Position numbers and translations under genes: made by a program
Notes under the pieces: generated by a model
What the model saw: the letters and a program-made list of their open reading frames with translations, nothing else
Told to the model about the DNA's origin: nothing
Databases searched by the model: none
Part shown: positions 3,327 through 53,248 of the stretch, one piece after another
How positions within the stretch are numbered: position 1 is the first letter of the stretch
Layout: every line of letters starts with the position of its first letter
Assembly: GCA_913055805.1 (NCBI GenBank)
Contig: CAJXLF010000010.1
Location: forward strand, 21,040 to 85,039
DNA from: an uncultured Salinisphaerales bacterium
Lineage (GTDB): Bacteria; Pseudomonadota; Gammaproteobacteria; Nevskiales; CAJXLF01
Direction of reading: 5' to 3'
DNA length: 64,000 nt

Positions 3327-4730
3327 ATGTCTGATTCCGAAGACACTACGCTTAAAAAACTGAAAACCAGTCCTTTTGACCGCAATCTGGCCATGGCCAA
3401 GGTGGGCGTGGTCACGGGCACCCAGGTGCTGGGCCATGAACTGGGCAACCTGTTTCGCGGCAAGGCCGGGCGCGAAGACCGTGATCGCGAATTCTATACG
3501 CGCCAGGCAGGCTATCTGGCCGACGAACTGGGCAAGCTGAAAGGCAGTGTCATGAAGGTCGGACAGATGCTGTCCCTGTATGGGCAATACTTCATGCCGC
3601 CGGAAGCGGTGAACGTGCTGGCCGGCCTGCAGGACAACACCCCGCCGGTCGACTGGGAGGTGGTGTACCCGATTGTGCAGCAGCAACTGGGGCCACGCCG
3701 TCTGGCGGAACTGGAGATTGAACCCAGACCACTGGCGTCGGCCTCGCTGGGGCAGGTGCATGTGGCCTGGCGCAAGTCCGACCGGCGCAAGATGGTGCTG
3801 AAGATCCAGTACCCAGGTGTGGGTGACGCCATCGACAGTGATGTGCGTACCTTGTCGCGTCTGATGAGTATGGCCAAGATCATGCCCAAGGGCATTTCGC
3901 TGGCGCCGATCATGGAAGAAGTGCGCGAAATGTTGCACCAGGAAGTGGATTACGGGCGCGAGCTCACCATGACGCAGACTTACTATGAGCGTCTCAAGGA
4001 TGATCCGCGTTACGTCGTGCCGGAAGTGATTGAGGAGTATTGCAGCGACCTGATTCTGGCATTCAGTTACGAAGAGGCGCTGCATGTGAAATCCGAAGAG
4101 GTGCAGGCGCTGCCACAGGCGCGGCGTGACCGTATTGCCGCCAATGCGCTGGAACTCTTCTTTACCGAGTTCTTTGGCTGGGGCCTGGTGCAGACCGATC
4201 CGCATTTCGGCAATTTCAAGGTGCGTATCGATCCGCAGGGAGAGAACGACCAACTGGTGCTGATGGACTTCGGTGCGACCCGGGTTTTCTCCAGACCCTT
4301 CCGCAATCATTACTACAACATTGTGGCCGGCGCCTATGCCGACGATGTGGAGCAGATGCTTGCCGGCGCCGAGGGGATTGGCCTCATGCGTACGCATTTT
4401 TCCGAAAATGTGCGCAGCGCCTTCGTCGAGGTCTGTCGATTGATCATTGAGCCTTTCTGTCAGGTCTGTGATGAGCGGCCGCCGGCAGAATGGCTGACCG
4501 AAGATGGCGGGTATCGCTGGGGCCGGACCGATCTGCCGACACGGGTGGCGGCAGCGGTCAGCAAGGCCGCCATGTCGCGTTATTTTCGTGTTCCGCCGCG
4601 GGAAATCGTGTTTCTGCACCGCCGCCTGGTCGGCGTCTTTGTATTGCTGGCCGTGCTGGATGCCACCATTGATGGCCGTCAGGTCCTGGCGCGTTACGTG
4701 ACGCCATTGGCTGATGATGTGAGTCGATAA
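3327..4730 (+). CDS. ABC1/UbiB-family atypical protein kinase
   Basis: 467-aa ORF with ABC1/ADCK-type motifs: ASASLGQVHVAWRK, LKIQYPGV, EVDYGRE, QTDPHFGNF, LMDFGA. Confidence 0.85.
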   Translation: MSDSEDTTLKKLKTSPFDRNLAMAKVGVVTGTQVLGHELGNLFRGKAGREDRDREFYTRQAGYLADELGKLKGSVMKVGQMLSLYGQYFMPPEAVNVLAGLQDNTPPVDWEVVYPIVQQQLGPRRLAELEIEPRPLASASLGQVHVAWRKSDRRKMVLKIQYPGVGDAIDSDVRTLSRLMSMAKIMPKGISLAPIMEEVREMLHQEVDYGRELTMTQTYYERLKDDPRYVVPEVIEEYCSDLILAFSYEEALHVKSEEVQALPQARRDRIAANALELFFTEFFGWGLVQTDPHFGNFKVRIDPQGENDQLVLMDFGATRVFSRPFRNHYYNIVAGAYADDVEQMLAGAEGIGLMRTHFSENVRSAFVEVCRLIIEPFCQVCDERPPAEWLTEDGGYRWGRTDLPTRVAAAVSKAAMSRYFRVPPREIVFLHRRLVGVFVLLAVLDATIDGRQVLARYVTPLADDVSR

Positions 4731-4920: not shown

Positions 4921-6273
4921 ATGCAACCGAGAACCCTACTGTCCGTGGGTGTCGCTTTTACAATGGGACTATCCGCCATCCAGGCGCAGGCCAAGGTATC
5001 TGCCGAAGAAGCAGCCAAGCTGGGCGCTGAATTGACCCCCGTGGGCGCTGAAAAGGCTGCCAATGCCGACGGCAGTATTCCGGAGTGGACCGGCGGTGAA
5101 CCGCAGAGCGGCGATCCCTCGGGTATGTGGCCCGACGAGACCAAGTATGTGCCCGAGCAATCCATTGCCACCATCACCAAGGCCAATATGGCCGAGTATG
5201 CGGACAAGCTGACCGAAGGCCACAAGGCCATGCTCGAGCGCTACGATACCTACAAGATGCTGGTCTACAAATCGCATCGCCCGGTTTCTTATCCCGCGCC
5301 GATTGTGAAGGCGACAAAGGAAAACGCCACGCGCGCTTTTCTGGACGGCGACCCCGACCATATCAAGGGGGCCAAGCTGGGTTTCCCGTTCCCGATTCCA
5401 CAATCGGGCGCTGAAGTCATCTGGAATCACCGTCTGCGCTGGCGTGGTGAGGCGGTGAAGCGCTACAACAACCAGGCGATCGTGCAGCCCAGCGGCGAGT
5501 ATCAGATCAGTAAACTGGTGGAGGACGTCAAGTTCCCGTACACCGATCTGGATGACCCGCAGCCGTTTGACGAAGAAGACGACATTGCCATCTATTACCT
5601 GTCCGAAACCATTGCGCCGCCACGTAACGCAGGACAGTTCCTGCTGGGCTGGGAGCATCCCTATTCCCGTAGTGCCTGGTTGTACAACCCGGGTCTGCGG
5701 CGCGTACGCCGTGCCCCGAATGTCGGTTTCGACAATCCCTATGAAGGCACTGACGGCAACCAGTTCTACGACCAGGTGGATATGTATAACGGTTCCTTCG
5801 AGCGTTATACCTGGAAGCTGGTGGGCAAGAAGGAAGTCTATATTCCCTACAATTCACACAATATCAATCTGCCGAAACACAAGTACGACGACATCATTCA
5901 GCAGTATCACGTGAATCAGGATATTGCCCGTTACGAGTTGCATCGGGTGTGGGTGGTTGAGGCGGAACTGAAGCCCGGCACCAGCCACAGTTTCAAGAAG
6001 CGTCGCTTCTATGTGGACGAGGATTCCTGGTATGTGACCGCGGTCGACTGTTACGACAATCGTGATGAGCTGTGGAAGTTCCAGGAGGCGCATACCGCCT
6101 ATACAACGAATGTTCAGGCTGTGGGTGGCGCGCCCGAGCTGATCTATGACTTCCAGACCGGCGGCTATTTCGCGACAGCCATGATCAACGAGGACAAGCC
6201 GAATGATTTCTCGGTGGAATACAACGACAAGTACTTCACCACCCAGAATGTGAAAAAGCTCACCACGCGTTGA
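4921..6273 (+). CDS. DUF1329 family periplasmic/outer-membrane-associated protein
   Basis: 450 aa with an N-terminal signal peptide (MQPRTLLSVGVAFTMGLSAIQAQA). DUF1329-type blocks are shared with the C-terminal half of ORF 653-3247. A GAGGAG RBS lies upstream. Confidence 0.85.
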   Translation: MQPRTLLSVGVAFTMGLSAIQAQAKVSAEEAAKLGAELTPVGAEKAANADGSIPEWTGGEPQSGDPSGMWPDETKYVPEQSIATITKANMAEYADKLTEGHKAMLERYDTYKMLVYKSHRPVSYPAPIVKATKENATRAFLDGDPDHIKGAKLGFPFPIPQSGAEVIWNHRLRWRGEAVKRYNNQAIVQPSGEYQISKLVEDVKFPYTDLDDPQPFDEEDDIAIYYLSETIAPPRNAGQFLLGWEHPYSRSAWLYNPGLRRVRRAPNVGFDNPYEGTDGNQFYDQVDMYNGSFERYTWKLVGKKEVYIPYNSHNINLPKHKYDDIIQQYHVNQDIARYELHRVWVVEAELKPGTSHSFKKRRFYVDEDSWYVTAVDCYDNRDELWKFQEAHTAYTTNVQAVGGAPELIYDFQTGGYFATAMINEDKPNDFSVEYNDKYFTTQNVKKLTTR

Positions 6274-7164: not shown

Positions 7165-9762
7165 TCAGTCCGCCAGTTTCTTCAGTTCGTAGAGCAACTC
7201 CAATGCCTGTTTCGGACTCAGTTCATCGGGTTCGATATCTGCCAGCCGTTTTACAGCGGGTGAGGGTTTGTCTGAAGGTGCCTGGAACAGTCCGATCTGC
7301 TGCGGGTTGTCGTTTGTCATGGCGTTGCTGACCGGTTTGGATTCCAGTTCGGCCAGATAACGTTTGGCCAGTACCAGCACCGGTTTCGGCAGGCCGGCCA
7401 GTGCGGCTACCTGCAGGCCGAAACTCTGGTTGGCCGGGCCTTCCTTTACGGCGTGCAGGAAAACCAGTTCCTCACGCCCGCCGCTGGAAAACTCCGTGGC
7501 ATCCAGATGCACATTGGCTACCGTGGGCAGGCGTTCAGCCAGTTCCGTGAGCTCGAAATAATGCGTGGCGAACAGGGTGAAGGCATGTACTTCGCTGGCC
7601 AGCCAGTCGGCGCAGGCATGCGCCAGCGACAGGCCGTCGTAGGTGCTGGTGCCGCGGCCGATCTCGTCCATCAGCACCAGGCTGTCAGCGGTCGCGTGGT
7701 TGAGTATGGTCGCGGTTTCCGTCATTTCCACCATGAAGGTCGAACGCCCGCCGGCAAGGTCATCGGCCGCGCCAATGCGGGTAAATATACGGTCGATGGG
7801 TCCGAAGGTTGCGGCATCGGCCGGAACGAAGCTGCCGATATGCGCCATCAGCACGATCAGGGCAGTCTGCCGCATATAGGTGGATTTGCCGCCCATGTTC
7901 GGGCCGGTAATAACGAGCATGCGGCGCTCGGCCCCGAGCATCAGGTCATTGGCGATAAACGGATCATCAATGCTGCCTTCCACGACAGGATGGCGTCCCG
8001 CCCGGATATCGATGCAGCTTTCCTCAACCAGGCGGGGTTCGTTCCAGTTCAGGGTTTCGGCACAGGCTGCAAGATTGGCCAGTACGTCCAGTTCGGACAG
8101 CGCTGACGCCGTGAGCTGTAGTGCCCCGATATGCGTGGCCAGCTGGTCGAGCAGGGATTCATAGAGGTGTTTTTCACGGGCCAGTGCGCGTTCGCGCGCG
8201 CTGAGCACCTGGTCCTCGAATTGCTTGAGTTCGGGCGTGATATAGCGTTCGACGCCCTTGAGTGTCTGGCGACGTGTGTAGTCGTCCGGCACCTTGTCGC
8301 TGTGCGTTTTGCCCAGTTCGATGTAATAGCCATGCACCCGGTTGTAGCCGAGCTTGAGTGTGTCCACGCCAACCCGTGCGCGTTCGCGCTGTTCCAGGTC
8401 CAGCAGGAAGCCGTCGGCGTTCTGGCTGATGTCCCGCAGCCGATCCAGTTCCTCGTCATAGCTTGTGCGGATGACACCCCCGTCACGGATCAGCATGGGC
8501 GGGTTGTCGATAAGCGCGGAGCTGAGCAGCGTTTCGACGCTGCCGTGGTCCCCGGTATCGGCATTCAGCTCCGCCAGTCTCGGGCTGTCGATAGCTGTCA
8601 GCTGTTCCTTGAGTCCGGGCAGAAGGCCGAGGCTGCGTCCCAGCCCGGACAGATCACGGGGGCGGGCGCTGCGCAGGGCGATGCGCGCCAGGATACGTTC
8701 GATGTCGACGATTTCCTGCAGCTGATCCTGCAGTCCCCGGTAGAGTTGCCGGTTCTGCAGGCTGCTGATGGCCTGGTAGCGTTTGCGCAGCACGTTCTGA
8801 TCACGCAGCGGCCGCTGTAGCCAGCGGCGCAACAGCCGCCCGCCCATGGCGGTGGCGCAGCGGTCCATGATGCCAATGAGTGTGTGTTCACTGCCGCCAC
8901 TGAGATTGTGCTCCAGTTCCAGGTTGCGGCGCGTGGCGGCATCCAGGTGCAGGGCCGTGTCGCGGTTCTCGGTGGTAATACGGGTGATGTGAGGAATAGC
9001 GGCTTTCTGGGTTTCCTGTACGTATTGCAGCAGGGCGCCGGCCGCGGCAACTGCCAGGGGTTTGTCCTCGCAGCCAAAAGCCACCAGGTCCTGGGTGCCG
9101 AACTGCTCCAGCAACAGGCGTCGTGCACTGCTGCTGTCGAAATGCCAGGGCGGACGGACACGTTGACCACGTTGCCGCAATGAAATATCCATGCCCTCGG
9201 CGACCAGATATTCCACTGGTTTCAGGCGCTCCAGTTCAGCTTGCAGTTCTTCGCGATGCTCCACTTCCAGAACGGTGAAGCGGGCGCTGCTCAGTTCCAG
9301 CGCGGCAATACCGTATCGGCTTGCATGCGCATGAATGGCCACCAGCAGGTTATCGCTGCGCTGATTGAGGAAGGCCTCATCGGTGACGGTGCCCGGTGTG
9401 ACGATGCGTACAACCTTGCGTTCAACAGGGCCTTTGCTGGTGGCCGGATCACCGACCTGTTCACAGATGGCAACCGATTCGCCTTGTCTCAGCAGGCGCG
9501 CGAGGTATTGTTCGGCGGCATGGTAGGGCACGCCCGCCATGGGAATCGGGGCGCCGGCCGACTGTCCGCGCGTCGTCAGGGTGATATCCAGCAGCCGGGC
9601 GGCCCGCTGAGCGTCATCGTAGAACAGCTCGTAGAAATCGCCCATGCGGTAAAACAGCAGAATGTCGGGGTGATCCGCTTTCAGCCTGAGGTACTGCTGC
9701 ATCATCGGCGTATGTGTTGGCGTGTTGTTCGCTGCTGATGAACGCGTCGCTGTCTTGCTCAA
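7165..9762 (-). CDS. mutS: DNA mismatch repair protein MutS
   Basis: [31 protein letters not shown]-terminus, Walker [14 protein letters not shown], and STFMVEM. The longest ORF starts at a TTG (9762). The internal ATG pair at ~9705 is an alternative start. Confidence 0.97.
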
Positions 9763-24860: not shown

Positions 24861-24877
24861 TGAAACAAAGTGTTTCA
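24861..24877. promoter_or_regulatory. Candidate PrpR upstream activating site
   Basis: Inverted repeat TGAAAC-AAAGT-GTTTCA, plus a further GGTTTCAT copy at ~24896. This resembles the GTTTCAT/ATGAAAC half-sites I recall for enterobacterial PrpR. Confidence 0.4.
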
Positions 24878-24904
24878 TAATGTCTCGAACAAAAGGTTTC
24901 ATAC

Positions 24905-26521
24905 ATGCCAGAAACACTCCGCAGCCCACGTAACAAGCCCGTGATCTGGACCGTCAGCATGACGCGTCTGGAAGAACTCTTTCGTGACGTCACACCTGAA
25001 TATGACCAGCAGGCCGTGATCCATAATCTGCATGGCGGCTATGAAGAAGCCGTGAATCTGCTCAACAAGCGGCTGGCCCGGCAACCCTGCGATGTCATTA
25101 TTGCCGCCGGTTCCAATGGCAGCTACATCAGAAAGCATATAGACAAACCCGTGGTTCTGGTGGAGCCCAGCGGTTTCGACCTCATGCAGGCCCTGAGCCG
25201 GGCGCGACGCCGCAGTCAGGGGCGAAACAAACGGATTGCCGTAGTGACCCACCAGACAGATTTGCCGACCTTTACCGAATTCTGCGAAGACTTCGGCCTG
25301 GAAATCGAGCAGCGCAGTTTCCTGACGGCTGAGGATGCCCGTAACTGCGTGGCCGAACTGCAGGACCGCGATGTGCATGCGGTGGTTGGCACCGGACTGA
25401 TTACGGGGATGGCCGAGAGCGCCGGTATGGCGGGTATTTTGCTGTACTCACCGGATTCGGTGCGCCGGGCGCTCAATGCGGCGCTGGATCTGGTAACCGC
25501 CCTTGAGCAACGCGCGCCGGTGGATGAGGTACGGCGTCCGGGAAGGCAGAAAGTCGGCGGCGCGCGCTACACGCTCGACCATATGCTGGGCCAGAGCGAG
25601 GTCATGCAGACATTACGCCGGCGTATCCAACGGGCGGCCGGGGCGGAATCCACGGTGCTGATTCACGGCGCTACAGGTACGGGCAAGGAATTGGCGGCGC
25701 AGGCCGTGCATGCCGCCTCGGCACGCCGGCGGCAGGCCTTTGTCGCCATTAACTGTGGCGCTATTGCCGAGTCGTTGCTGGAGTCGGAGTTGTTCGGACA
25801 CGAAGAGGGAGCGTTTACCGGTGCGCGGCGGGGCGGCCGCCCGGGTTTGATCGAGGCGGCGCACAAGGGCAGCCTGTTCCTGGACGAAATAGGCGAAATG
25901 CCTCTGGCGCTGCAAACGCGCCTGCTCAGGGTACTGGAGGAACGTGAAGTGTTGCGCGTTGGCAGCAATCACACCATCCCCGTGGACATAAGGGTTATTG
26001 CCGCCACGCATTGCGATTTGCCTGCCATGGTGGCGCAAGGCCGCTTCCGGGCGGATCTCTACTATCGCTTGAATGTGCTCAGGATCAATTTGCCCGCGCT
26101 GTCTGAACGCCGGGCAGACATCCCCGCGCTGTTTGCCGCTTTTGCCGATCGTTTCCGACAGGGCATCAGCTTGAAAATCACCCGGGAAGCCAATGCCCTG
26201 TTGGCAGCTTATCCCTGGCCGGGCAATCTGCGTGAACTCAAGAACATTGTAGAGCGTGTTCTGGCAGATACGACCGGCAGGGAGGTGCAGGTGGATTTGG
26301 CGCTGCTACGCCAGAGCGCACCCGAACTGTTCAATGAAGGAGAGGCCGGTTCGCATCCGCAGGCGGCGACAGGCCTGCCAGCGGCAGATCATGAACGCCG
26401 GCAACTTGAGCAGGTGCTGCGGGAATGTATGGGCAATCGTGGCGAGGCCACCAGGCGCCTGGGCATTTCGCGCAGCACCTTATGGCGACGCATGCAGCAG
26501 TATGGCCTGCTGAAATCCTGA
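24905..26521 (+). CDS. prpR: Propionate catabolism sigma54-dependent activator PrpR
   Basis: N-terminal PrpR domain, AAA+ core (GATGTGKELAAQAVH, ESELFGHEEGAFTGA, LFLDEIGEM) and a C-terminal HTH (ATRRLGISRSTLWRRM). Divergent from prpBC. Confidence 0.92.
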   Translation: MPETLRSPRNKPVIWTVSMTRLEELFRDVTPEYDQQAVIHNLHGGYEEAVNLLNKRLARQPCDVIIAAGSNGSYIRKHIDKPVVLVEPSGFDLMQALSRARRRSQGRNKRIAVVTHQTDLPTFTEFCEDFGLEIEQRSFLTAEDARNCVAELQDRDVHAVVGTGLITGMAESAGMAGILLYSPDSVRRALNAALDLVTALEQRAPVDEVRRPGRQKVGGARYTLDHMLGQSEVMQTLRRRIQRAAGAESTVLIHGATGTGKELAAQAVHAASARRRQAFVAINCGAIAESLLESELFGHEEGAFTGARRGGRPGLIEAAHKGSLFLDEIGEMPLALQTRLLRVLEEREVLRVGSNHTIPVDIRVIAATHCDLPAMVAQGRFRADLYYRLNVLRINLPALSERRADIPALFAAFADRFRQGISLKITREANALLAAYPWPGNLRELKNIVERVLADTTGREVQVDLALLRQSAPELFNEGEAGSHPQAATGLPAADHERRQLEQVLRECMGNRGEATRRLGISRSTLWRRMQQYGLLKS

Positions 26522-44463: not shown

Positions 44464-45498
44464 ATGGATATCGCGCAGTTACTCGCGTTTGGTGTAAAGC
44501 AGGGCGCTTCGGACTTGCACCTGTCGGCCGGTATGCCGCCCATGATTCGTGTGGACGGCGACATGCGCCGTATCAACCTGCCGGAAATGCCGCACAAGCA
44601 GGTGTACGACATGGTGTACGACATCATGAACGACAAGCAGCGCAAGACGTTCGAGGAATTTCTTGAAACTGACTTCTCGTTTGAGATCGAGAACCTGGCG
44701 CGCTTCCGTGTTAACGCCTTCAACCAGGACCGCGGCTGCGCGGCCGTATTCCGCACCATTCCTTCCAAGGTGCTGACGCTGGAAGATCTCAATGCGCCTT
44801 CCGTGTTCAAGGAAATCGTCGATGTGCCGCGCGGTCTGGTGCTGGTGACCGGCCCCACCGGTTCGGGCAAATCGACCACGCTGGCGGCCATGATCAATTA
44901 CCTGAATGAAACTGAAATGGGGCATATCCTCACCATTGAAGATCCCATCGAATTCGTGCACCAGTCGAAAAAGTCCCTGATCAACCAGCGTGAAGTGCAT
45001 CGTGACACCCTGGGGTTCAACGAAGCCCTGCGTTCAGCACTGCGTGAGGATCCGGATATCATTCTGGTGGGCGAGTTGCGCGACCTTGAAACCATACGTC
45101 TGGCGCTGACGGCTGCGGAAACCGGTCACGTGGTGTTCGGTACCCTGCATACTTCGTCGGCGGCCAAGACCATCGACCGCGTGATCGACGTCTTTCCGGC
45201 AGCGGAAAAGGACATGATTCGCGCCATGCTCTCGGAATCGCTGCGCTCAGTCATCGCCCAGACCCTGCTGAAGAAGAAGGGCGGCGGCCGCATCGCGGCA
45301 CATGAAATCATGGTGGGCACGCCGGCCATTCGTAACCTGATTCGTGAGAACAAGATCGCGCAGATGTACTCGGCCATCCAGACCGGTCAGAACGTGGGTA
45401 TGCAGACGCTGGATCAATGTCTGCTGGAACTGGTCAAGAAAGGCCAGGTTTCACCCCAGGAAGCCAAACGCAAGGCCGCAAACAAAGAGATGTTTTAG
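44464..45498 (+). CDS. pilT: Type IV pilus retraction ATPase PilT
   Basis: MDIAQLLAFGVKQGASDLHL, Walker A GPTGSGKSTT, DIILVGELRD, His box HVVFGTLHTSSAAKTIDRV, and the PilT-specific AIRNLIRE motif. Confidence 0.96.
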   Translation: MDIAQLLAFGVKQGASDLHLSAGMPPMIRVDGDMRRINLPEMPHKQVYDMVYDIMNDKQRKTFEEFLETDFSFEIENLARFRVNAFNQDRGCAAVFRTIPSKVLTLEDLNAPSVFKEIVDVPRGLVLVTGPTGSGKSTTLAAMINYLNETEMGHILTIEDPIEFVHQSKKSLINQREVHRDTLGFNEALRSALREDPDIILVGELRDLETIRLALTAAETGHVVFGTLHTSSAAKTIDRVIDVFPAAEKDMIRAMLSESLRSVIAQTLLKKKGGGRIAAHEIMVGTPAIRNLIRENKIAQMYSAIQTGQNVGMQTLDQCLLELVKKGQVSPQEAKRKAANKEMF

Positions 45499-45513
45499 GG
45501 GAGACGCTGACTG

Positions 45514-46677
45514 ATGGAACGCGATAAGGCGGTAAAACTGGTGCAGGATCTGCTGCGCCATATGAAATCGCGCAACGGTTCGGACCTGTTTCTGACCACC
45601 GGTTTTCCACCGGCAATCAAGGTCGATGGCAAATTGCAGCCGGTCATGGACAAGCCCCTGTCGCCCGAACAGGCAAACATGATGGTGCGCTCGCTGATGA
45701 ATGACCGGCAGGGCAAGGAATTCGAGGCCACCAAGGAGTGCAACTTCGCGATCGCGCCGGGAGACATCGGGCGTTTTCGTGTCAGCGCCTTTGTGCAACA
45801 GGGTCGGGTCGGGGCAGTGCTGCGAACCATCCAGACGGAAATCCCGACTTTCGAACAGCTGGATCTGCCGGAAGTGCTCAAGGACATTGTCATGTCCAAA
45901 CGAGGGCTGGTGATCTTCGTGGGCGCCACGGGCAGCGGTAAATCCACCTCGCTGGCCGCCATGATGGGATATCGGAACGAAAATTCCTACGGCCACATCA
46001 TTACGATTGAGGACCCGGTGGAATACGTACATCCGCACAAGAACTGTGTCATCACGCAGCGTGAAGTGGGCGTGGACACCGAAAGCTGGGATAACGCCCT
46101 GAAGAACACCCTGCGTCAGGCGCCTGACGTGATTCTGATTGGTGAGATTCGCACCCGCGAGACCATGGAGCATGCGGTGAATTTCGCCGAAACCGGTCAC
46201 CTGGTCCTGTCCACCCTGCATGCCAACAGCGCCAATCAGGCATTGGACCGTATTATCAATTTCTTCCCCGAGGAGAAGCGCGACCAGGTGCTGATGGACC
46301 TGTCCCTGAATCTGCGCGCCATCATTTCCCAGCGCCTGGTCAAGCGCGAAGATGGCGGCCGCGTTGCCGCCATGGAAATCATGATCAACACGCCGCTGAT
46401 TTCCGACCTGATCTTCAAGGGCGAGGTGTCCCAGATCAAGGAAGTCATGGGCCGTTCGACCGAGCAGGGCATGGTGACCTTTGATCAGTTCCTGTTCAAA
46501 TTGTTCGAAGGCCATGTCATCAGCTACGAAGAGGCCATCAAGAACGCCGACTCCCAGAACGAGTTGCGTCTGGCCATCAAGCTCAAGAGCAAGCGCCAGC
46601 CGCAGAAGCTTGAGGAAGACGAGGTGGTCAAGAGCATGCGTCTGGAAGAAGACGAAGATGACGGGCAGGCATTCTGA
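45514..46677 (+). CDS. pilU: Type IV pilus ATPase PilU
   Basis: PilT-family core (GATGSGKSTSLAAM, DVILIGEIRT, HLVLSTLHANSANQALDRI) without AIRNLIRE (TPLISDLIFKGE instead). Has an acidic C-terminal extension. Confidence 0.93.
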   Translation: MERDKAVKLVQDLLRHMKSRNGSDLFLTTGFPPAIKVDGKLQPVMDKPLSPEQANMMVRSLMNDRQGKEFEATKECNFAIAPGDIGRFRVSAFVQQGRVGAVLRTIQTEIPTFEQLDLPEVLKDIVMSKRGLVIFVGATGSGKSTSLAAMMGYRNENSYGHIITIEDPVEYVHPHKNCVITQREVGVDTESWDNALKNTLRQAPDVILIGEIRTRETMEHAVNFAETGHLVLSTLHANSANQALDRIINFFPEEKRDQVLMDLSLNLRAIISQRLVKREDGGRVAAMEIMINTPLISDLIFKGEVSQIKEVMGRSTEQGMVTFDQFLFKLFEGHVISYEEAIKNADSQNELRLAIKLKSKRQPQKLEEDEVVKSMRLEEDEDDGQAF

Positions 46678-46686
46678 GGCTGAACC

Positions 46687-47748
46687 ATGATTAAACTGCT
46701 GCCACTTCTGAAACTGCTCGCCGAGAAGAATGGCTCCGACCTTTATCTGACCGCACATGCGCCTCCCATAGTGAAAATCGAGGGACGGCATATGCCGGTC
46801 GGCAAGGATGCGCTGACGGCGCAAGTGGTGCAGGAGCTGGTTTTTTCCGGCATGACCGATGAGCAGGTGGATCTGTTCGACGCGGAATGGGAGCTGGACT
46901 TTGCCACCGAAGCCAGCGGTCTGGGGCGCTTTCGTGTCAATGTGTTCAAGCAACGTGGGCGCGTTGCCGCTGTGTATCGGCGCATTCCGGATCGTATCCC
47001 GACGCTGGAAGAGTTGAATATGCCGCCTGCGCTCAATCGGCTGGCGCTGGAAAAGCGTGGCCTCATTCTGATGGTGGGCGCTACCGGTAGCGGCAAGTCG
47101 ACTACGCTGGCGGCCATGATCAATCAGCGCAACAGCGAAATGACTGGACATATCCTGACGATTGAGGATCCGATCGAGTTCGTTCACAACAACAAGAAGT
47201 CCATCGTGAACCAGCGCGAACTGGGTGTGGATACGCGCAGCATGAACCGCGCGCTGCGCAGCTCATTGCGCGAGGCGCCGGATGTGATTCTTCTGGGCGA
47301 GAGCCGTGACGCGGAATCCATGGGCACCTGTCTGCAACTGGCAGGGACCGGTCATCTGGTGAAATCGACCCTGCATGCAGGCAATACCTACCAGGCTTTC
47401 CAGCGCATTGTGCGCATGTTCCCGGAGGATGCGCGCGAGCAGCTGTTCATGGACATGTCCATGAACCTCAAGGCCATGCTGTCGCAGCGTCTGGTGATGG
47501 GCAAGGATGGCAAGCGTGTGGCCGCCATCGAAGTGCTGGTGATCACGCCGCATATGGCGGAGTTGATTATGAGTGGCAAGTTCGAGGAAGTGAAGGATGC
47601 CATGATCGATTCGCAGAATCCCGAGATACAGACCTTCGACCAGTCCCTGGCCAAGCTCTACCGGGAAGGCGTGATCGAGCGTGATGAGGCATTGAACCAG
47701 GCCGACTCGCGCGCCAACCTGGAGGCCTTGCTGGATTTCGGCGGCTAG
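46687..47748 (+). CDS. Third PilT/PilU-family hexameric ATPase paralogue (PilU-like)
   Basis: GATGSGKSTTLAAM Walker A, DVILLGESRD, HLVKSTLHAGNTYQAFQRIV. Lacks AIRNLIRE (TPHMAELIMSGK). Starts 9 nt after pilU. Confidence 0.88.
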   Translation: MIKLLPLLKLLAEKNGSDLYLTAHAPPIVKIEGRHMPVGKDALTAQVVQELVFSGMTDEQVDLFDAEWELDFATEASGLGRFRVNVFKQRGRVAAVYRRIPDRIPTLEELNMPPALNRLALEKRGLILMVGATGSGKSTTLAAMINQRNSEMTGHILTIEDPIEFVHNNKKSIVNQRELGVDTRSMNRALRSSLREAPDVILLGESRDAESMGTCLQLAGTGHLVKSTLHAGNTYQAFQRIVRMFPEDAREQLFMDMSMNLKAMLSQRLVMGKDGKRVAAIEVLVITPHMAELIMSGKFEEVKDAMIDSQNPEIQTFDQSLAKLYREGVIERDEALNQADSRANLEALLDFGG

Positions 47749-48710
47749 TACTGGCGGTTGCCGGCAATCATGGCCATGACTGCCATGCGCACGGCAATGC
47801 CATTGCGTACCTGCTCCAGGATGACGGAGCGCTCTCCGTAAGCAACTTCGCTGTCAATTTCCACACCCCGGTTAATGGGGCCGGGATGCATGACAATGGC
47901 ATCCGGTTTCAGTAGCCGCATGTTGTCACGGGTCAGGCCGAAGTCCCGGTGATAGGCGGGCAAGTCATTGATCTTCTTTTCATGCATGCGCTCATGCTGC
48001 AGGCGCAGGCCCATCACGACGTCGACATCTTTCAGGCCGCTGGCCAGGTCATAGTAAGGCGTCGCGCCAAGTTGTTCCGGCGCCTCCATCATCAGCGCTT
48101 CGGGCGCGACGATGCGAATATCGGGCACACCCAGAGTCTTCAGTGCATGAATGTTGGAGTGCGCCACTCGTGAATGCAGCACATCCCCGACAATGGCGAT
48201 GGAAAGGTTCCCGAAGTCCGCTTTGTGGCGCTGAATAGTAAAGGCGTCGAGCAGCGCCTGGGTAGGATGCGCATTGGCGCCGTCGCCCGCGTTGAGAATC
48301 GCGACTTCATTGCCTACTTCGGCAGCGAAGCCGGCCGTGGCCCCCTTGTCCGGATGTCGGATGACGAAGACATCAACACCCATGGCCTGCAGCGTCAGCA
48401 GGGTATCCAGGTCTGTTTCACCCTTGCTCTTGGAGGAAGACTCCATTTGTAGGTTCAGTACATCGGCCGAGAGCCGCTTGGCCGCAAGTTCGAAAGTTGT
48501 ACGTGTTCTGGTGCTGGGTTCGAAGAACAGGTTTACCACGGTGTGACCGCGCAGCAGGGGCGCGGACTTGATCTGGCGCTTGCCCACCGGCAGGAAAGAT
48601 TCAGCGGTTTCGAGAATCGACAGAATCAGGTCCTTGCCAAGGCCTTCTGTGGTCAGCAAATGGCGCAGCCGCCCTTCGGAATCAATCTGGAGACTGGCGG
48701 CGCTACTCAT
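47745..48710 (-). CDS. pyrB: Aspartate carbamoyltransferase catalytic subunit
   Basis: FFEPSTRTRTTFE and HPTQALLD motifs, 321 aa. Confidence 0.96.
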   Translation of the reverse strand: MSSAASLQIDSEGRLRHLLTTEGLGKDLILSILETAESFLPVGKRQIKSAPLLRGHTVVNLFFEPSTRTRTTFELAAKRLSADVLNLQMESSSKSKGETDLDTLLTLQAMGVDVFVIRHPDKGATAGFAAEVGNEVAILNAGDGANAHPTQALLDAFTIQRHKADFGNLSIAIVGDVLHSRVAHSNIHALKTLGVPDIRIVAPEALMMEAPEQLGATPYYDLASGLKDVDVVMGLRLQHERMHEKKINDLPAYHRDFGLTRDNMRLLKPDAIVMHPGPINRGVEIDSEVAYGERSVILEQVRNGIAVRMAVMAMIAGNRQY

Positions 48711-49228
48711 CTTGAGGTGCTTCCGGTTGTGAGTTTCAGGAAAAGAGGGGCGGGGCCATGCAGCTTGATGTGCTGCGAGCGGGGCAGAGTGACTTGCTGG
48801 CCGATGACATCGGCCGCTATAGGCAGTTCATGTCCGCCGCGGTCAATCAGTACCACCAGGGTGACGCTGGTCGGTCGTCCGTAATCGAATAATTCATTCA
48901 GCGCTGCGCGCACAGTGCGGCCGGTATGCAGGATGTCATCCACCAGGATGACCGGCCGGTCATCAATGTTCTCCTCGAGGTCGGATGGCTTGACCTGGGG
49001 ATGCAGGCCAATGCGGGTAAAGTCGTCGCGGTAAAAGTGAATATTAAGGCTGCCAAGCCGGCTGGAAAGTTGCAGGCGCGCATGCAGTGCTTCTGCGATC
49101 CATAAGCCGCCGGTATGAATGCCGACCATGACTGGCGCCTGTGCTGCGGATTCGACCAGCGGCTTCAGTTGCGCGGCCATCGCGTCCAGCGTTGCTTCAA
49201 TATCCAGGGCGTCGATTGTTTTGCTCAT
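48707..49228 (-). CDS. pyrR: Bifunctional pyrimidine regulatory protein / uracil phosphoribosyltransferase PyrR
   Basis: PRTase motif VILVDDILHTGRTVRAA. Start ATG 49228 makes an ATGA overlap with the ruvX stop. Confidence 0.93.
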   Translation of the reverse strand: MSKTIDALDIEATLDAMAAQLKPLVESAAQAPVMVGIHTGGLWIAEALHARLQLSSRLGSLNIHFYRDDFTRIGLHPQVKPSDLEENIDDRPVILVDDILHTGRTVRAALNELFDYGRPTSVTLVVLIDRGGHELPIAADVIGQQVTLPRSQHIKLHGPAPLFLKLTTGSTSR

Positions 49229-49662
49229 GACTGCAGTCCCAGCCAATCCTCAAGAATAATGCGTGCCGCTTCACTGTCTTTCTCGCCGGCGCGTATGCGT
49301 TTTGAGCGGCCACTGGCGCGTTGCGATTTTAAGGCCTGTCGGGCGGCGACAGAAGACAGGCGTTCGTCCATGCTGTGTACAGGCAGCCGATAGCGTTTGC
49401 CCAGTTCCTTGGCAAAGCGTCGTGCCCGGGTAGTCAGCGGTTGTTCGCTGCCGTCCATGTTCAGAGGCAGGCCTACGACGCAGGCTGCGGGATGCCAGTC
49501 TTCAAACAGTTTTTGCAGGCTTTCCCAGTCGGGCTGCGGTGCGCTGTTGATCGTAGTCAGGCCGCGTGCGGTACCGGTCAGGACATTGCCGACGGCGACG
49601 CCGATACGACGGGTTCCATAATCAAAGCCGAGCAGGGTCTGGTTTGAGGAAGCTGCGCTCAC
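49225..49662 (-). CDS. ruvX: Putative pre-16S rRNA nuclease / Holliday-junction-resolvase-like YqgF
   Basis: LLGFDYGTRRIGVAVG N-terminus. GTG start overlapping the yqgE stop (GTGA). Confidence 0.93.
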   Translation of the reverse strand: MSAASSNQTLLGFDYGTRRIGVAVGNVLTGTARGLTTINSAPQPDWESLQKLFEDWHPAACVVGLPLNMDGSEQPLTTRARRFAKELGKRYRLPVHSMDERLSSVAARQALKSQRASGRSKRIRAGEKDSEAARIILEDWLGLQS

Positions 49663-50225
49663 GCGTGTCCCGCCTGTCCACTCAGTAGGCTGGGGTCCAC
49701 ACCCAGTAACTGTGCGGCAGCGGTCCAGCGCGCGGCAGGCGGGGTCTTGAAAATGATGGCGGAGTCCGGCGGGCTGTTCAGCCAGCTGTTTTCCAGTATT
49801 TCGCTTTCCAGCTGGCCGCCACTCCAGCCGGCATAGCCGAGTGTCACGATGTAGTCTTTCGGCCCCTTGCCCTCGCTGATGGCGACCAGAATATCCTTGG
49901 AGGTCGTCAGCCAGATGTCATCGCTGACCTTGAGCGTAGAGTCCCATTCACCCTCGGGTACATGCAGGACAAAGCCGCGTTCGGTTTGCACCGGTCCACC
50001 CCAGAATACCGGTGTGTCGTCAGGCACATGCTGGCTGGCGTCCAGGTCCATATGGGTAAACATGTCGCGCAGTCGCAGGGTGGTGGGGCGGTTGATCACC
50101 AGGCCCATGGCGCCTTCATCGGAATGTTCGCAAAGGAGGGTGACGCTATGATCGAATTCGCCCTGTACAACACCGGGCATGGCGATCAGGAACTGGTTGC
50201 TAAATAAACTTTTTTTGTCGGTCAT
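49659..50225 (-). CDS. yqgE: YqgE/AlgH-family protein (UPF0301)
   Basis: Start ATG 50225 (MTDKKSLFSNQFLIAMPGV...FDHSVTLLCEHSDEGAMGLVINRP). Confidence 0.9.
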   Translation of the reverse strand: MTDKKSLFSNQFLIAMPGVVQGEFDHSVTLLCEHSDEGAMGLVINRPTTLRLRDMFTHMDLDASQHVPDDTPVFWGGPVQTERGFVLHVPEGEWDSTLKVSDDIWLTTSKDILVAISEGKGPKDYIVTLGYAGWSGGQLESEILENSWLNSPPDSAIIFKTPPAARWTAAAQLLGVDPSLLSGQAGHA

Positions 50226-50256
50226 TACAAGGGATGTTAGCGCCGCGCGGCGGGGG

Positions 50257-51201
50257 CTACAACCGCTTTTCAATGGCGTCCATCAGCTGGCCGGCGATAT
50301 TGGCCCCGTATATCTTGTCCAGTTCCCTGACGCAGGTCGGGCTGGTGACGTTGATTTCGGTGAGATAGTCACCGATCACGTCCAGCCCAACGAATAGCAG
50401 GCCCTTTTCACGCAGCGTTGGACCAACCTGTTCGCAGATCCAGCGGTCGCGGTCTGACAGATCCACCCCTTCGCCGCGTCCGCCTGCGGCCAGGTTGCCG
50501 CGGGTTTCGCCCTGTGCAGGAATGCGCGCCAGTGCATGCGCAAAGGGTTCGCCATCTATCATCAGGATACGTTTGTCACCCGCTTTTATTTCAGGCAGAT
50601 AACGTTGCGCCATGACGTAGTGGCTGCCATGTTCGGTCAGTGTTTCCAGAATGACAGACAGATTGGCTTCATCGGCCGATGCCCGGAAAACGCGGGATCC
50701 GCCCATGCCCTCCAGGGGTTTGAGCACGATGTTCTGCTGCTCTTTGTGAAAAGCACGCAGGCGCTGCATGTCCCGTGAGATGAGGGTGGGGGCGCAACAC
50801 TGCGGAAAATACTGGGCGAAAAATTTTTCGTTGGCGTCGCGCAGACTGGCGGGTTTATTGACGACCAGGGCGCCTTCCCGCTCGGCCAGCTCCAGTGCGT
50901 AGGTGGCATAAATGTATTCGGTGTCGAACGGCGGATCCTTGCGCATCAGGATGGCGTCCAGCTCGCCCAGCGCGACCGTGTTCTCGGCGCCCAGGGTGAA
51001 CCAGTCACTGTTGTCATCGCGGACTTCCAGGTAGTGGCTGCGGCCAAAGGGTTTGCCGTCGCGCACGTAGAGATCCGGCATTTCCAGGTAATGAATCTCC
51101 CAGCCACGGCGCTGGATTTCCAGCATCATAGCCAGGGTGGTGTCCTTGTAGGGGGTGATGTTCTGGATGGGGTCCATAACAACCCCGATGCGAATGGTCA
51201 T
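50257..51201 (-). CDS. gshB: Glutathione synthetase
   Basis: MTIRIGVVMDPIQNITPYKDTTLAMMLE N-terminus and an ATP-grasp C-terminal half. 314 aa. Confidence 0.96.
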   Translation of the reverse strand: MTIRIGVVMDPIQNITPYKDTTLAMMLEIQRRGWEIHYLEMPDLYVRDGKPFGRSHYLEVRDDNSDWFTLGAENTVALGELDAILMRKDPPFDTEYIYATYALELAEREGALVVNKPASLRDANEKFFAQYFPQCCAPTLISRDMQRLRAFHKEQQNIVLKPLEGMGGSRVFRASADEANLSVILETLTEHGSHYVMAQRYLPEIKAGDKRILMIDGEPFAHALARIPAQGETRGNLAAGGRGEGVDLSDRDRWICEQVGPTLREKGLLFVGLDVIGDYLTEINVTSPTCVRELDKIYGANIAGQLMDAIEKRL

Positions 51202-51252: not shown

Positions 51253-52608
51253 TCATTCTGGCAGCGAGACACGTTTGGATATGGCGTCGATTTCCCTGGC
51301 GGCAGCCAGCAAGGCAAGCCGTGCGACCACGCCATAGGCATAGAAACGGTTGGGTTCGGCATCCGGTGACAGGTTGGGGTCGGGGCAGTCGCCGGCCTCG
51401 GCAAATGCCAGCGGCTCGAATTGCATGCCCGGGGCGTTCAGGTTTTCCTGGGTGCCACGGCCTTTATGCACCCTGTAGAAGCCGCCGACCACATGATGGT
51501 CGATCATGTACACCACGGGCTCGGCCACGGCATTTTCGGGTTCCCATGTTTCCGAGGTATAGACGCCTTCCTGGATAATGGCGCCAGTGACGTCCAGGCC
51601 TTCTTTCGCCGAGGCCATCTTGTTGCGCTGTTTGCGGTTGAGCTGGCTGATTTCTTCGGGGCTTTTGACCGTCATGATGCCCATGCCATAAGTGCCGGCA
51701 TCCGATTTTACGATGACAAAAGGTTCATCCTTGATGCCGTATTCCCGGTATTTTTCCTCGATGTCTTCCAGCAACATGGCGACGTTGCTTTCCAGGCACT
51801 CAATGCCTTCGTTTTTCTTGAAATTGATCTGGCCGCAGTTGCGGAAAAGCGGATCCACCAGCCAGGGATCAATGTCGAGCAGTTGTGCAAATTCTTCAGT
51901 GACCTGGCGATAGACGCCAAAGTGCTGGGATTTGAGCCGGTTATTCCAGCCCAGGTCCAGCGGCGGCATGATCGGCTGGTCGATATTTTCCAGAATCGCG
52001 GGCCGTCCGCCGCTCAGATCATTGTTGAGCAGCACGGCACAGGGGAAGAAGTCGGCGACACCAACCTTGTTTCCCTGGCGCTGCAGAGGTTCCAGCAGCA
52101 GTGTTCTGCCTGAATCCAGGTTGATTTCAGTAGCTTCGCTGATTTCCTCCGCCAGTGTGCCGATACGCACCTCGAAACCCGCGTTGGAAATCATCTCCGC
52201 CAGGCGCGCCAGATTCTCCAGATAGAAAAGGTTTCTCGTGTGTTTTTCCGGAATCAGGAGAATGCCGGCGGCCGTGGGGCATACGCGTTGAATCGCCGCC
52301 TGCAGGGCCCAACGACACAGTGGGTCGAAAGCGGGGTTCAGGTTATTGAAGCCCGCCGGGAACAGGTTGGTATCAACAGGGGCCAGTTTGTAACCGGCGT
52401 TGCGTAAATCAACCGAAGCATAAAACGGGGGTGTGGTGATCAGCCATTGGCGGCGTAGCCAGGTTTCGATCTCGCTCTGGTTGGCCAGGAGCTTTTCTTC
52501 CAGCGCGAGCAATGGGCCGCGCTGAGCTGTCGTGAGGTGGGGAACAGCTGCCATACCGGCCGTACTCTGAATCATGCCTGGCATCCTGAAATATTGAGGT
52601 GGCGACAT
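51253..52608 (-). CDS. gshA: Glutamate--cysteine ligase, compact proteobacterial type (the family I recall as the T. ferrooxidans-type GshA)
   Basis: ~450-aa ORF directly upstream of gshB. The block FYASVDLRNAGYKLAPVDTNLFPAGFNNL matches my memory of that family. The start codon is uncertain (ATGs at 52608, 52584, 52575, 52554). Confidence 0.75.
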   Translation of the reverse strand: MSPPQYFRMPGMIQSTAGMAAVPHLTTAQRGPLLALEEKLLANQSEIETWLRRQWLITTPPFYASVDLRNAGYKLAPVDTNLFPAGFNNLNPAFDPLCRWALQAAIQRVCPTAAGILLIPEKHTRNLFYLENLARLAEMISNAGFEVRIGTLAEEISEATEINLDSGRTLLLEPLQRQGNKVGVADFFPCAVLLNNDLSGGRPAILENIDQPIMPPLDLGWNNRLKSQHFGVYRQVTEEFAQLLDIDPWLVDPLFRNCGQINFKKNEGIECLESNVAMLLEDIEEKYREYGIKDEPFVIVKSDAGTYGMGIMTVKSPEEISQLNRKQRNKMASAKEGLDVTGAIIQEGVYTSETWEPENAVAEPVVYMIDHHVVGGFYRVHKGRGTQENLNAPGMQFEPLAFAEAGDCPDPNLSPDAEPNRFYAYGVVARLALLAAAREIDAISKRVSLPE

Positions 52609-52643
52609 GTTAGCGCAGTTCCTGTAAAGCTGCAGTGGCTAGA

Positions 52644-52731
52644 GGATGACGGGTGGATGACGGGTGGATGGCGGGTGGATGGCGGGTGGATGGCGGGTGG
52701 ATGGCGGGTGGATGGCGGGTGGATTAACGGT
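52644..52731. repeat. 11-bp G-rich tandem repeat, 7 full units plus 1 degenerate unit
   Basis: GGATGACGGGT x2, GGATGGCGGGT x5, then GGATTAACGGT. Intergenic between the divergent gshA and pilG. Confidence 0.97.
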
Positions 52732-52846
52732 ATGCAGTGCACCCAGAATGTGCTAAAAAACGGATATTTACAGAAGATCATTAGCGTAAAACGCTAGTCT
52801 TGTGACTGGAGAGCGTCCGCTAAGGGGCATAGAAATCGGAGGTGAC

Positions 52847-53248
52847 ATGACGGCCGCCCAGCAGCCATCAACGATGAGTGGGTTAAAGGTCATGGTGATT
52901 GATGACAGCAAGACCATCCGGCGTTCGGCTGAGACGCTGCTGGCCGGACTGGGGTGTCAGGTGCTGACGGCCAATGATGGCTTTGAGGCCATGGCCAAGA
53001 TCGCTGATCACCATCCCAGTATTATTTTTGTCGATATCATGATGCCGCGCCTGGACGGTTACCAGGTCTGCGCGCTCATAAAGAACAATCCCCATTACAA
53101 GGACATTCCGGTTGTCATGCTGTCCAGCAAGGATGGCTTGTTCGACCGCGCACGCGGCCGCATTGTGGGCTCTGACCAGTATCTGACCAAACCGTTTACC
53201 CGCGAGGAACTGGTCGGCGCGGTGCAGATTCACGCGGCAGCGAAATAG
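52847..53248 (+). CDS. pilG: CheY-like response regulator PilG
   Basis: ATG 52847 after GGAGGTGAC. Receiver domain (KVMVIDDSKTIRR...FVDIMMPRLDGY...LSSKDG...K). Confidence 0.92.
   Translation: MTAAQQPSTMSGLKVMVIDDSKTIRRSAETLLAGLGCQVLTANDGFEAMAKIADHHPSIIFVDIMMPRLDGYQVCALIKNNPHYKDIPVVMLSSKDGLFDRARGRIVGSDQYLTKPFTREELVGAVQIHAAAK

Follow-up and report, generated by a model that had tools for sequence, protein, structure and literature searches.

Why should an array of G-rich 11-bp tandem repeats stand between the divergent gshA and pilG genes of an environmental gammaproteobacterium, and does it act on either of them? In the window, by which we mean the whole 64-kb stretch of DNA that was analysed, the array could be read directly: two copies of GGATGACGGGT (the A-variant) are followed by five copies of GGATGGCGGGT (the G-variant) over positions 52644-52720, and a degenerate unit, GGATTAACGGT, closes the series at 52721-52731. 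The array and the two genes that it separates are the following.

51253-52575, minus strand: gshA, encoding a glutamate-cysteine ligase of the TIGR02049 type, 440 aa from the conserved start.
52644-52665, plus strand: two A-variant units, GGATGACGGGT, found by direct reading, TRF and unit search.
52666-52720, plus strand: five identical G-variant units, GGATGGCGGGT, forming a 55-bp perfect tandem, found by direct reading, TRF and unit search.
52721-52731, plus strand: the degenerate unit, GGATTAACGGT, recognised by alignment with relatives and by spacer arithmetic.
52847-53248, plus strand: pilG, encoding a CheY-like response regulator, the first gene of pilG-pilH-pilI-pilJ-chpA.

TRF placed the repeat at 52644-52724 (period 11, 7.4 copies, 98% matches) with a score of 148, by far the strongest tandem repeat of the 64 kb, the runner-up scoring 59. 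When the unit was searched with at most one mismatch, 11 matches were obtained in the window against a chance expectation of 2.27, and none of 100 shuffles contained 11 or more. Seven of these matches constitute the array; the other four (at 4502, 4971, 25425 and 60748) are isolated and each lies within a long ORF. The locus therefore has what defines a tandem repeat of the minisatellite type, namely three or more highly identical copies, placed head to tail, of a unit of roughly 10 bp or longer, in excess of chance. Direct reading and TRF thus agree with the original prediction on the composition of the array (two A-variants, five G-variants and one degenerate unit), and within the 64 kb the array is not a generic scattered repeat. 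Likewise, the two ORFs called across it (52537-52797 on the plus strand and 52572-52781 on the minus strand) proved to be artefacts that rotate from frame to frame, as had been proposed. An 11-bp unit cannot persist within a coding frame, so the intergenic location is in itself expected. It may be added that GGATG, the recognition word of a FokI-type IIS restriction-modification system, is present in every full unit (52644-52720); if the host had such a methyltransferase, an idea only, the array would be a cluster of seven methylation targets.

The gene context is the one originally described. The gene on the left matches TIGR02049 'gshA_ferroox' at E 1e-173 and is adjoined by gshB; further left are algH/DUF179, a pyrR-like phosphoribosyltransferase gene, pyrB and three tandem PilT-family ATPase genes (344, 387 and 353 aa), the stretch from the ATPases to algH/DUF179 covering 44464-50273. 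The operon on the right comprises pilG, pilH, a CheW-like pilI, an MCP gene (pilJ) and a gene whose 1989-aa product is a ChpA-like hybrid kinase containing Hpt, HATPase, CheW and receiver domains. This order mirrors the pilT-pilU ... gshB-pilG region of P. aeruginosa, with gshA here inserted beside gshB. The distances first given for the array are numerically right: 36 nt separate it from the start of the longest gshA ORF (52608), and 116 nt from the ATG of pilG (52847). However, the gshA start at 52608 is not conserved, its frame running into a stop in the Nevskiales locus L006 (see below), whereas the start at 52575, which the gene callers chose, is found at a constant distance from conserved blocks in relatives and is 69 nt from the array. 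Elsewhere in the window, two 24-nt direct copies, each with a palindrome of the TGAAAC-N5-GTTTCA type, were noticed at 24862-24916, directly upstream of the ORF that begins at 24905 and facing a divergent ORF of 314 aa; the pair looks like a tandem operator.

To trace the intergenic region in other bacteria, a GshA scan of the genome collection was used, which gave 80 loci, the best match being a Nevskiales MAG (L006; GshA 84% and PilG 93% identical). Five more relatives whose contigs cover the intergenic region (L102, L104, L105, L106 and L108) came from the PilG 90% cluster. In these six nearest relatives, whose PilG is 90-93% identical, both the divergent gshA/pilG pair, an arrangement that recurs in many Gammaproteobacteria, and the intergenic blocks are kept. 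The gshA-pilG intergenic region measures 187-201 nt in the six relatives versus 271 nt in the window. The array is absent from this region in all six, with at most one unit of ancestral type, and no array was found in the gshA-pilG gap among 87 related loci (546 kb), in which only two arrays of comparable score were found anywhere.

The blocks that align on both sides of the array (CATGTTAGCGCAGT, GCTGCA, GTATGCAG, the 24-nt AATGTGCTAAAAAACGGATAYTTA and TTAGCGTAA) contain elements resembling those of promoters.

52607-52612, minus strand: TAACAT, the probable -10 hexamer of gshA-gshB, invariant in 7/7 close sequences.
52630-52635, minus strand: CTGCAG, a box resembling a -35 element and placed 17 nt upstream of TAACAT; most relatives have ATGCAG here.
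52732-52737, plus strand: ATGCAG, the putative -35-like box of pilG, part of the conserved GTATGCAG.
52747-52770, plus strand: the 24-nt near-invariant block AATGTGCTAAAAAACGGATATTTA, identified by alignment with relatives.
52751-52759, plus strand: TGC+TAAAAA, the probable extended -10 of the pilG promoter, within AATGTGCTAAAAAACGGATATTTA.

TAACAT sits within the conserved block CATGTTAGCGCAGT (52606-52619); together with ATGTTAGC, it is still recognisable in the distant loci L014 and L030, and TGTGCTA is kept in Sulfuricaulis and Thiohalobacter loci. All six relatives have a mirror-symmetric core. One half, ATGCAG-N17-TAACAT, is directed towards gshA and has its -10-like hexamer at 30-44 nt from the start codon; the other, ATGCAG-N16-(TGC)TAAAAA, faces pilG at 83-86 nt from its ATG. 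The window retains both halves intact, at unchanged distances to the start codons. From this conservation we infer two back-to-back promoters, one towards gshA and one towards pilG. A scan of 52400-53000 for consensus sigma-70 promoters called none, and a terminator scan of the same interval returned one terminator-like site, inside gshA. If transcription is taken to start 7 nt past each -10, which is a guess, the array would extend from about -44 to -131 of the gshA promoter and from about -35 to -122 of the pilG promoter.

Several other readings of these elements were tried and rejected. A sigma-54 reading of the left box fits GG-N10-GC in L006 but not in the window, L102, L104, L105 or L108; TGTGCTA as a Vfr/CRP half-site has no second half-site; and the likeness of the CCGT-containing units to an AlgR site (5/9 positions) is not conserved in relatives and was set down as a chance match. 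Separately, the inverted ATGCAG boxes (window 52606-52770 and the six relatives) could be either -35-like elements or half-sites of a shared regulator. In Sulfuricaulis-like and Acidiferrobacteraceae loci (L013, L014, L021, L027 and L029-L033), a sigma-54-like TGGCAYGATTYNTGCTG lies between gshA and pilG, some 230 nt upstream of pilG and oriented towards it; the clade of the window keeps only the GCTGCA part.

The relatives also indicate where the additional DNA comes from. The spacer between blocks A and B is 32-33 nt in the six relatives versus 110 nt in the window, which equals 33 + 7x11. Measured between the ATGCAG boxes, the gap is 18-19 bp in relatives versus 96 bp, or 19 + 7x11, and is made up in the window of TGGCTAGA (8), seven units (77) and GGATTAACGGT (11). 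Given this exact excess, the simplest history is that an ancestral 11-mer was tandemly expanded in place: the array was generated in situ and not imported, as judged from the 7x11 arithmetic and from the homology of the terminal unit. The degenerate unit GGATTAACGGT aligns with, and is homologous to, the ...ATTAACGGT of the relatives, and is the likely ancestral seed of the array; as the seven new units differ from this presumed ancestor at 3/11 positions, it is mostly their position and the 7x11 arithmetic that speak for this descent. The distal A-variants look like the older copies, A6 being common to them and to the ancestral unit, and the block of five G-variants is probably the latest burst of expansion. 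The tandem-expansion origin advanced in the original prediction is thus strongly backed.

Could the repeat, or its copy number, be a product of short-read mis-assembly? Exact-protein look-ups found the identical 7.4-copy sequence in three JGI metagenome contigs, which agree base for base with the window over the array and its flanks. Assemblies based on k-mers do break inside the array: two Logan (k=31) contigs stop, from opposite sides, within the run of five G-variants. A k=31 assembler would be expected to do so where a repeat is real, and the contig ends carry the left and the right portion of the array, as they should. By contrast, three assemblies pass through the array unbroken, and an array of 88 nt fits within single 150-nt reads. 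With three separate JGI assemblies and the window identical across the whole array and its flanks, an artefact is scarcely credible. The three JGI contigs equal the window over 4.9-6.4 kb at 100% identity and thus represent one clone; the copy number is equal in all assemblies that span the array, which, coming from one clone, says little on variability. Further look-ups of PilG, PilH and GshA for other strains returned the same clone only, and the GshA 90% cluster has a single member.

Arrays built of the same kind of unit were then considered at other loci. A two-unit pattern scan of viral contigs gave 0 matches; the same scan of a metagenome collection, apparently without the window's own contigs, gave 16 loci in unrelated contexts (GC 35-69%), none of them a gshA/pilG locus; for the source organism itself, the search covers the 64 kb. 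Genuine arrays of this 11-mer, or of one like it, occur in L087 (8.5 copies, 9260-9352), L094 (at least 8.9 copies, 1-98) and L099 (92 copies of GGTGAATGACG, 1-1009). L088 and L094 have homologous flanks and differ in the number of copies of GGATGACGGGT, 3.8 (L088, 523-564) versus at least 8.9. On these comparisons, G-rich 11-mers of this kind appear to expand recurrently and independently, with no family of related elements.

Other repeats came to light among these loci. The array of L087 stands directly before a terminator-like hairpin. L093 (5457-5515), L098 (2185-2634) and L101 (8430-8458), from two ENA assemblies, share a small dispersed element, AGGT(GGATGACGGGT)x2.6 followed by GGATAG..CTATCC, with several further short arrays of 11-nt period nearby, which suggests that tandem repeats of 11 nt are a recurring class in the organism concerned. 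Betaproteobacterial gshA loci (L039, L047, L049 at 6076-6107 and 6144-6176, L059, L061, L065 and L068) carry paired inverted arrays of 7-nt units, for example (GCGTGAG)x4.6 facing (ACGCCTC)x4.7, which could form long repeat-built hairpins.

With moderate confidence, we take the array to be a young, lineage-specific 11-bp minisatellite (VNTR) that arose by in-place tandem duplication and whose effect is small or neutral. The seed would have been the ancestral 11-mer GGATTAACGGT in the 18-19-bp gap between back-to-back promoters, of which the leftward one would serve gshA-gshB and the rightward one pilG-pilH-pilI-pilJ-chpA. Replication slippage or unequal exchange would then have added seven units (77 bp), pushing the two core promoters, tightly juxtaposed in relatives, about 7.3 helical turns apart, and the region upstream of each would have become a GC-rich, helically phased, mildly curved tract. 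The effect on expression is probably small or neutral. With 55 bp of perfect tandem repetition, the array should be prone to changes in copy number, like other VNTRs. A counterpoint to neutrality is the site of the array, exactly between promoter cores that six relatives keep at a spacing constant to within 1 bp; extra DNA at this point might be expected to have consequences.

The units had been predicted to present the same face of the helix, and the summed model twist of 376 degrees per unit, calculated with an approximate Bolshoy-Trifonov wedge table, bears out this phasing. At about 1.05 turns per unit, the phase would drift slowly as units are added, which is a property of a rheostat rather than of an on/off switch. 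The array may be thought of as a contingency locus, for rheostat control or phase variation, in which gain and loss of 11-bp units by slippage would alter the distance and the rotational phase between the promoters, or between flanking operator halves. A 55-bp perfect tandem block is intrinsically prone to slippage, and the array does lie between divergent promoter cores, that is, between two conserved -35-like/-10-like pairs, putative promoters recognised by their conservation and not called by the sigma-70 scan. Promoter repeats that alter the spacing of distal elements (PMC3899988) and the 7-bp repeats of hmw1A (PMC12721329) are precedents, and the homologous pair L088/L094, unrelated to this locus, differs in copy number of this very 11-mer. 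However, no copy-number variant exists among the spanning assemblies, all of one clone, and three unbroken metagenome assemblies argue against strong heterogeneity within the population, though again for one clone. Moreover, the 11-bp unit exceeds the 1-7 bp typical of contingency repeats, the host, an environmental gammaproteobacterium with a Nevskiales MAG among its relatives, is not a host-adapted pathogen, and the genes concerned have housekeeping and signalling functions and do not encode surface antigens. We regard this mechanism as unlikely, and with it the outcome that it would have, heritable and reversible expression states of the Pil-Chp operon and/or of glutathione synthesis, like those set by the nadA TAAA or the hifA/hifB TA repeats.

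The exact 11-bp period raises a further question: is the array a newly amplified operator, with a winged-helix regulator of the OmpR/PhoB type, or another 11-bp-periodic binder, occupying one face of its eight helically phased units head-to-tail and controlling one or both promoters cooperatively? Direct repeats of 11 bp are the hallmark of PhoB/PhoP operators, which comprise up to 6-8 units and allow cooperative spreading from core units (PMC2275107, PMC4447250), and the array has direct repeats of exactly this period. The consensus of the Streptomyces PhoP unit is GKTCAYYYRSG (PMC2275107), which the reverse complement of the A-variant, CGTCATCCACC, matches at 9/11 positions; in E. coli, the PhoB site consists of two repeats of 11 bp that have TGTCA as their core and AT-rich sequence contacted in the minor groove (PMC4447250), and CGTCATCCACC contains CCGTCAT, 6/7 identical to the E. 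coli heptamer CTGTCAT. However, the chance of such heptamer-likeness over 22 registers is an estimated ~0.03, for a comparison made post hoc. The recognition core itself (TGTCA, or GTTCA in actinomycetes) is missing, the reverse complement reading CGTCA in two units and CGCCA in the five G-variants, which lose the T of TCA/TGTCA; the spacer is GC-rich (TCCACC) and not AT-rich; and position 1 is C, reported to be unfavourable (PMC2275107). In addition, the array begins an estimated 8 bp beyond the -35-like box rather than replacing it, it is absent from all relatives and hence no part of a conserved regulon, and the other four single copies of the unit in the window are all intragenic. Neither conservation in orthologous promoters nor further sites of a regulon were thus found. 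The likeness to OmpR/PhoB operators is loose, a lead that fails as an assignment to this class, and an operator array is distinctly unlikely. The earlier suggestion of cooperative binding by a regulator is consequently not sustained, since all close relatives lack the array and most units lack the recognition core of 11-bp-periodic binders.

A physical role for the array would be that of a non-B DNA switch: negative supercoiling between the divergent promoters would extrude G-quadruplexes on the plus strand and i-motifs on the C-rich strand, feeding back on both promoters. The array is located between such promoters, with GGG tracts every 11 nt and GG tracts 1-2 nt apart. Its mean G4Hunter score of 1.28 falls within the usual threshold of 1.2-1.5, with 70 nt (52651-52720) at or above 1.5; it holds one of just 2 G3N1-12 motifs in the window; and folding with ViennaRNA, with G-quadruplexes enabled and with RNA parameters, gave -34.5 versus -9.4 kcal/mol. 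Nevertheless, no canonical G3+N1-7 motif is present on either strand, only the G3N1-12 and G2N1-4 patterns being matched, and the loops between GGG tracts are 8 nt long, so only two-tetrad or long-loop quadruplexes could form. Eight regions of the 64 kb reach a G4Hunter score of 1.5 and one scores higher than the array, which, being absent in relatives, is outside the conserved control logic. A switch of this kind is very unlikely; quadruplex formation as first suggested is only conceivable.

Intrinsic curvature, the other structural property put forward at the outset, is predicted to be moderate. In the same approximate wedge model, the 101-nt segment with the array is above 98-99.5% of window segments, that is, in the top 0.5-2%, but far below a phased A-tract control. 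A single-strand DNA fold of 52620-52760 gave nothing beyond shuffles (z = +0.56) and no hairpin. No Rfam match was obtained in 52300-53000 at E<=1, and at gathering thresholds the whole window contained a tRNA-Ser elsewhere only. Iterons of a plasmid or phage origin were also considered and rejected, the neighbours being chromosomal housekeeping genes in a synteny conserved across many Gammaproteobacteria, with no viral-contig match.

What would the array mean under each of these readings? If it is merely a neutral VNTR, it is of practical use as a strain-typing marker and as a known breakpoint for short-k assemblies. At the other extreme, and rather unlikely, it would be a new cis-regulatory module just created by tandem amplification in one environmental lineage, consisting of eight phased sites, or of a curved, G4-prone, supercoil-sensitive spacer between divergent promoters, with copy number as an evolvable rheostat re-coupling glutathione synthesis with Pil-Chp surface sensing. 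If true, the birth of an operator or spacer by slippage would have been caught in the act outside pathogens. The Pil-Chp system feeds the cAMP-Vfr pathway. In Pseudomonas aeruginosa, glutathione status is functionally linked with this pathway (PMC6532553). In any case, the gshA/pilG control region is length-constrained in relatives, and one lineage tolerated a 77-bp insertion exactly in its middle; the clone is therefore a natural experiment on whether tight juxtaposition of the promoters matters.

How does the array compare with known systems? With Pho boxes and the direct-repeat units of PhoP (PMC2275107, PMC4447250), it shares the exact 11-bp period, the direct orientation, consecutive units and an A-variant that is partly core-like; however, the majority of its units are without the core, and it is neither at -35 nor conserved in orthologous promoters. 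With intergenic VNTRs or minisatellites such as the MLVA loci of Burkholderia pseudomallei (PMC1853098), it shares head-to-tail units of about 10 bp at near-perfect identity, an intergenic location, a patchy presence among related genomes, in which such loci are present, absent or variable, and a probable origin by slippage or unequal exchange. VNTRs of the MLVA type are defined in practice by polymorphism within a species, whereas the array is known from one clone, and, unlike them, it falls precisely between two conserved promoter cores.

This last feature brings it closer to the TAAA repeats of Neisseria meningitidis nadA and the TA tracts of Haemophilus influenzae hifA/hifB, in which a repeat in or upstream of the promoter sets, by its number, the distance between flanking elements; the hifA/hifB repeat is even part of a bidirectional promoter, like the divergent pair described here (PMC3899988). 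Those repeats have units of 2-4 bp, documented high-frequency switching and binding proteins, IHF and NadR (PMC3899988), whereas the unit here is 11 bp, or about one helical turn, so that an extra unit barely shifts the rotational phase, and the host is not a pathogen. The (ATCTTTC)n repeat of H. influenzae hmw1A (PMC12721329) is likewise intergenic and upstream of a gene, with a unit length that is not a multiple of 3. Expression of hmw1A is graded with the copy number of this 7-bp repeat, as in a rheostat (PMC12721329). Transcripts of hmw1A include the repeat in their 5' UTR, where it folds into a long hairpin with a G-rich arm cleaved by RNase III (PMC12721329), whereas the present array probably precedes both start sites and has no predicted hairpin. 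Taken together, these comparisons suggest that, among known systems, those closest to the array in their way of working would be the promoter-spacing repeats of nadA and of hifA/hifB (PMC3899988), along with the graded repeat of hmw1A (PMC12721329).
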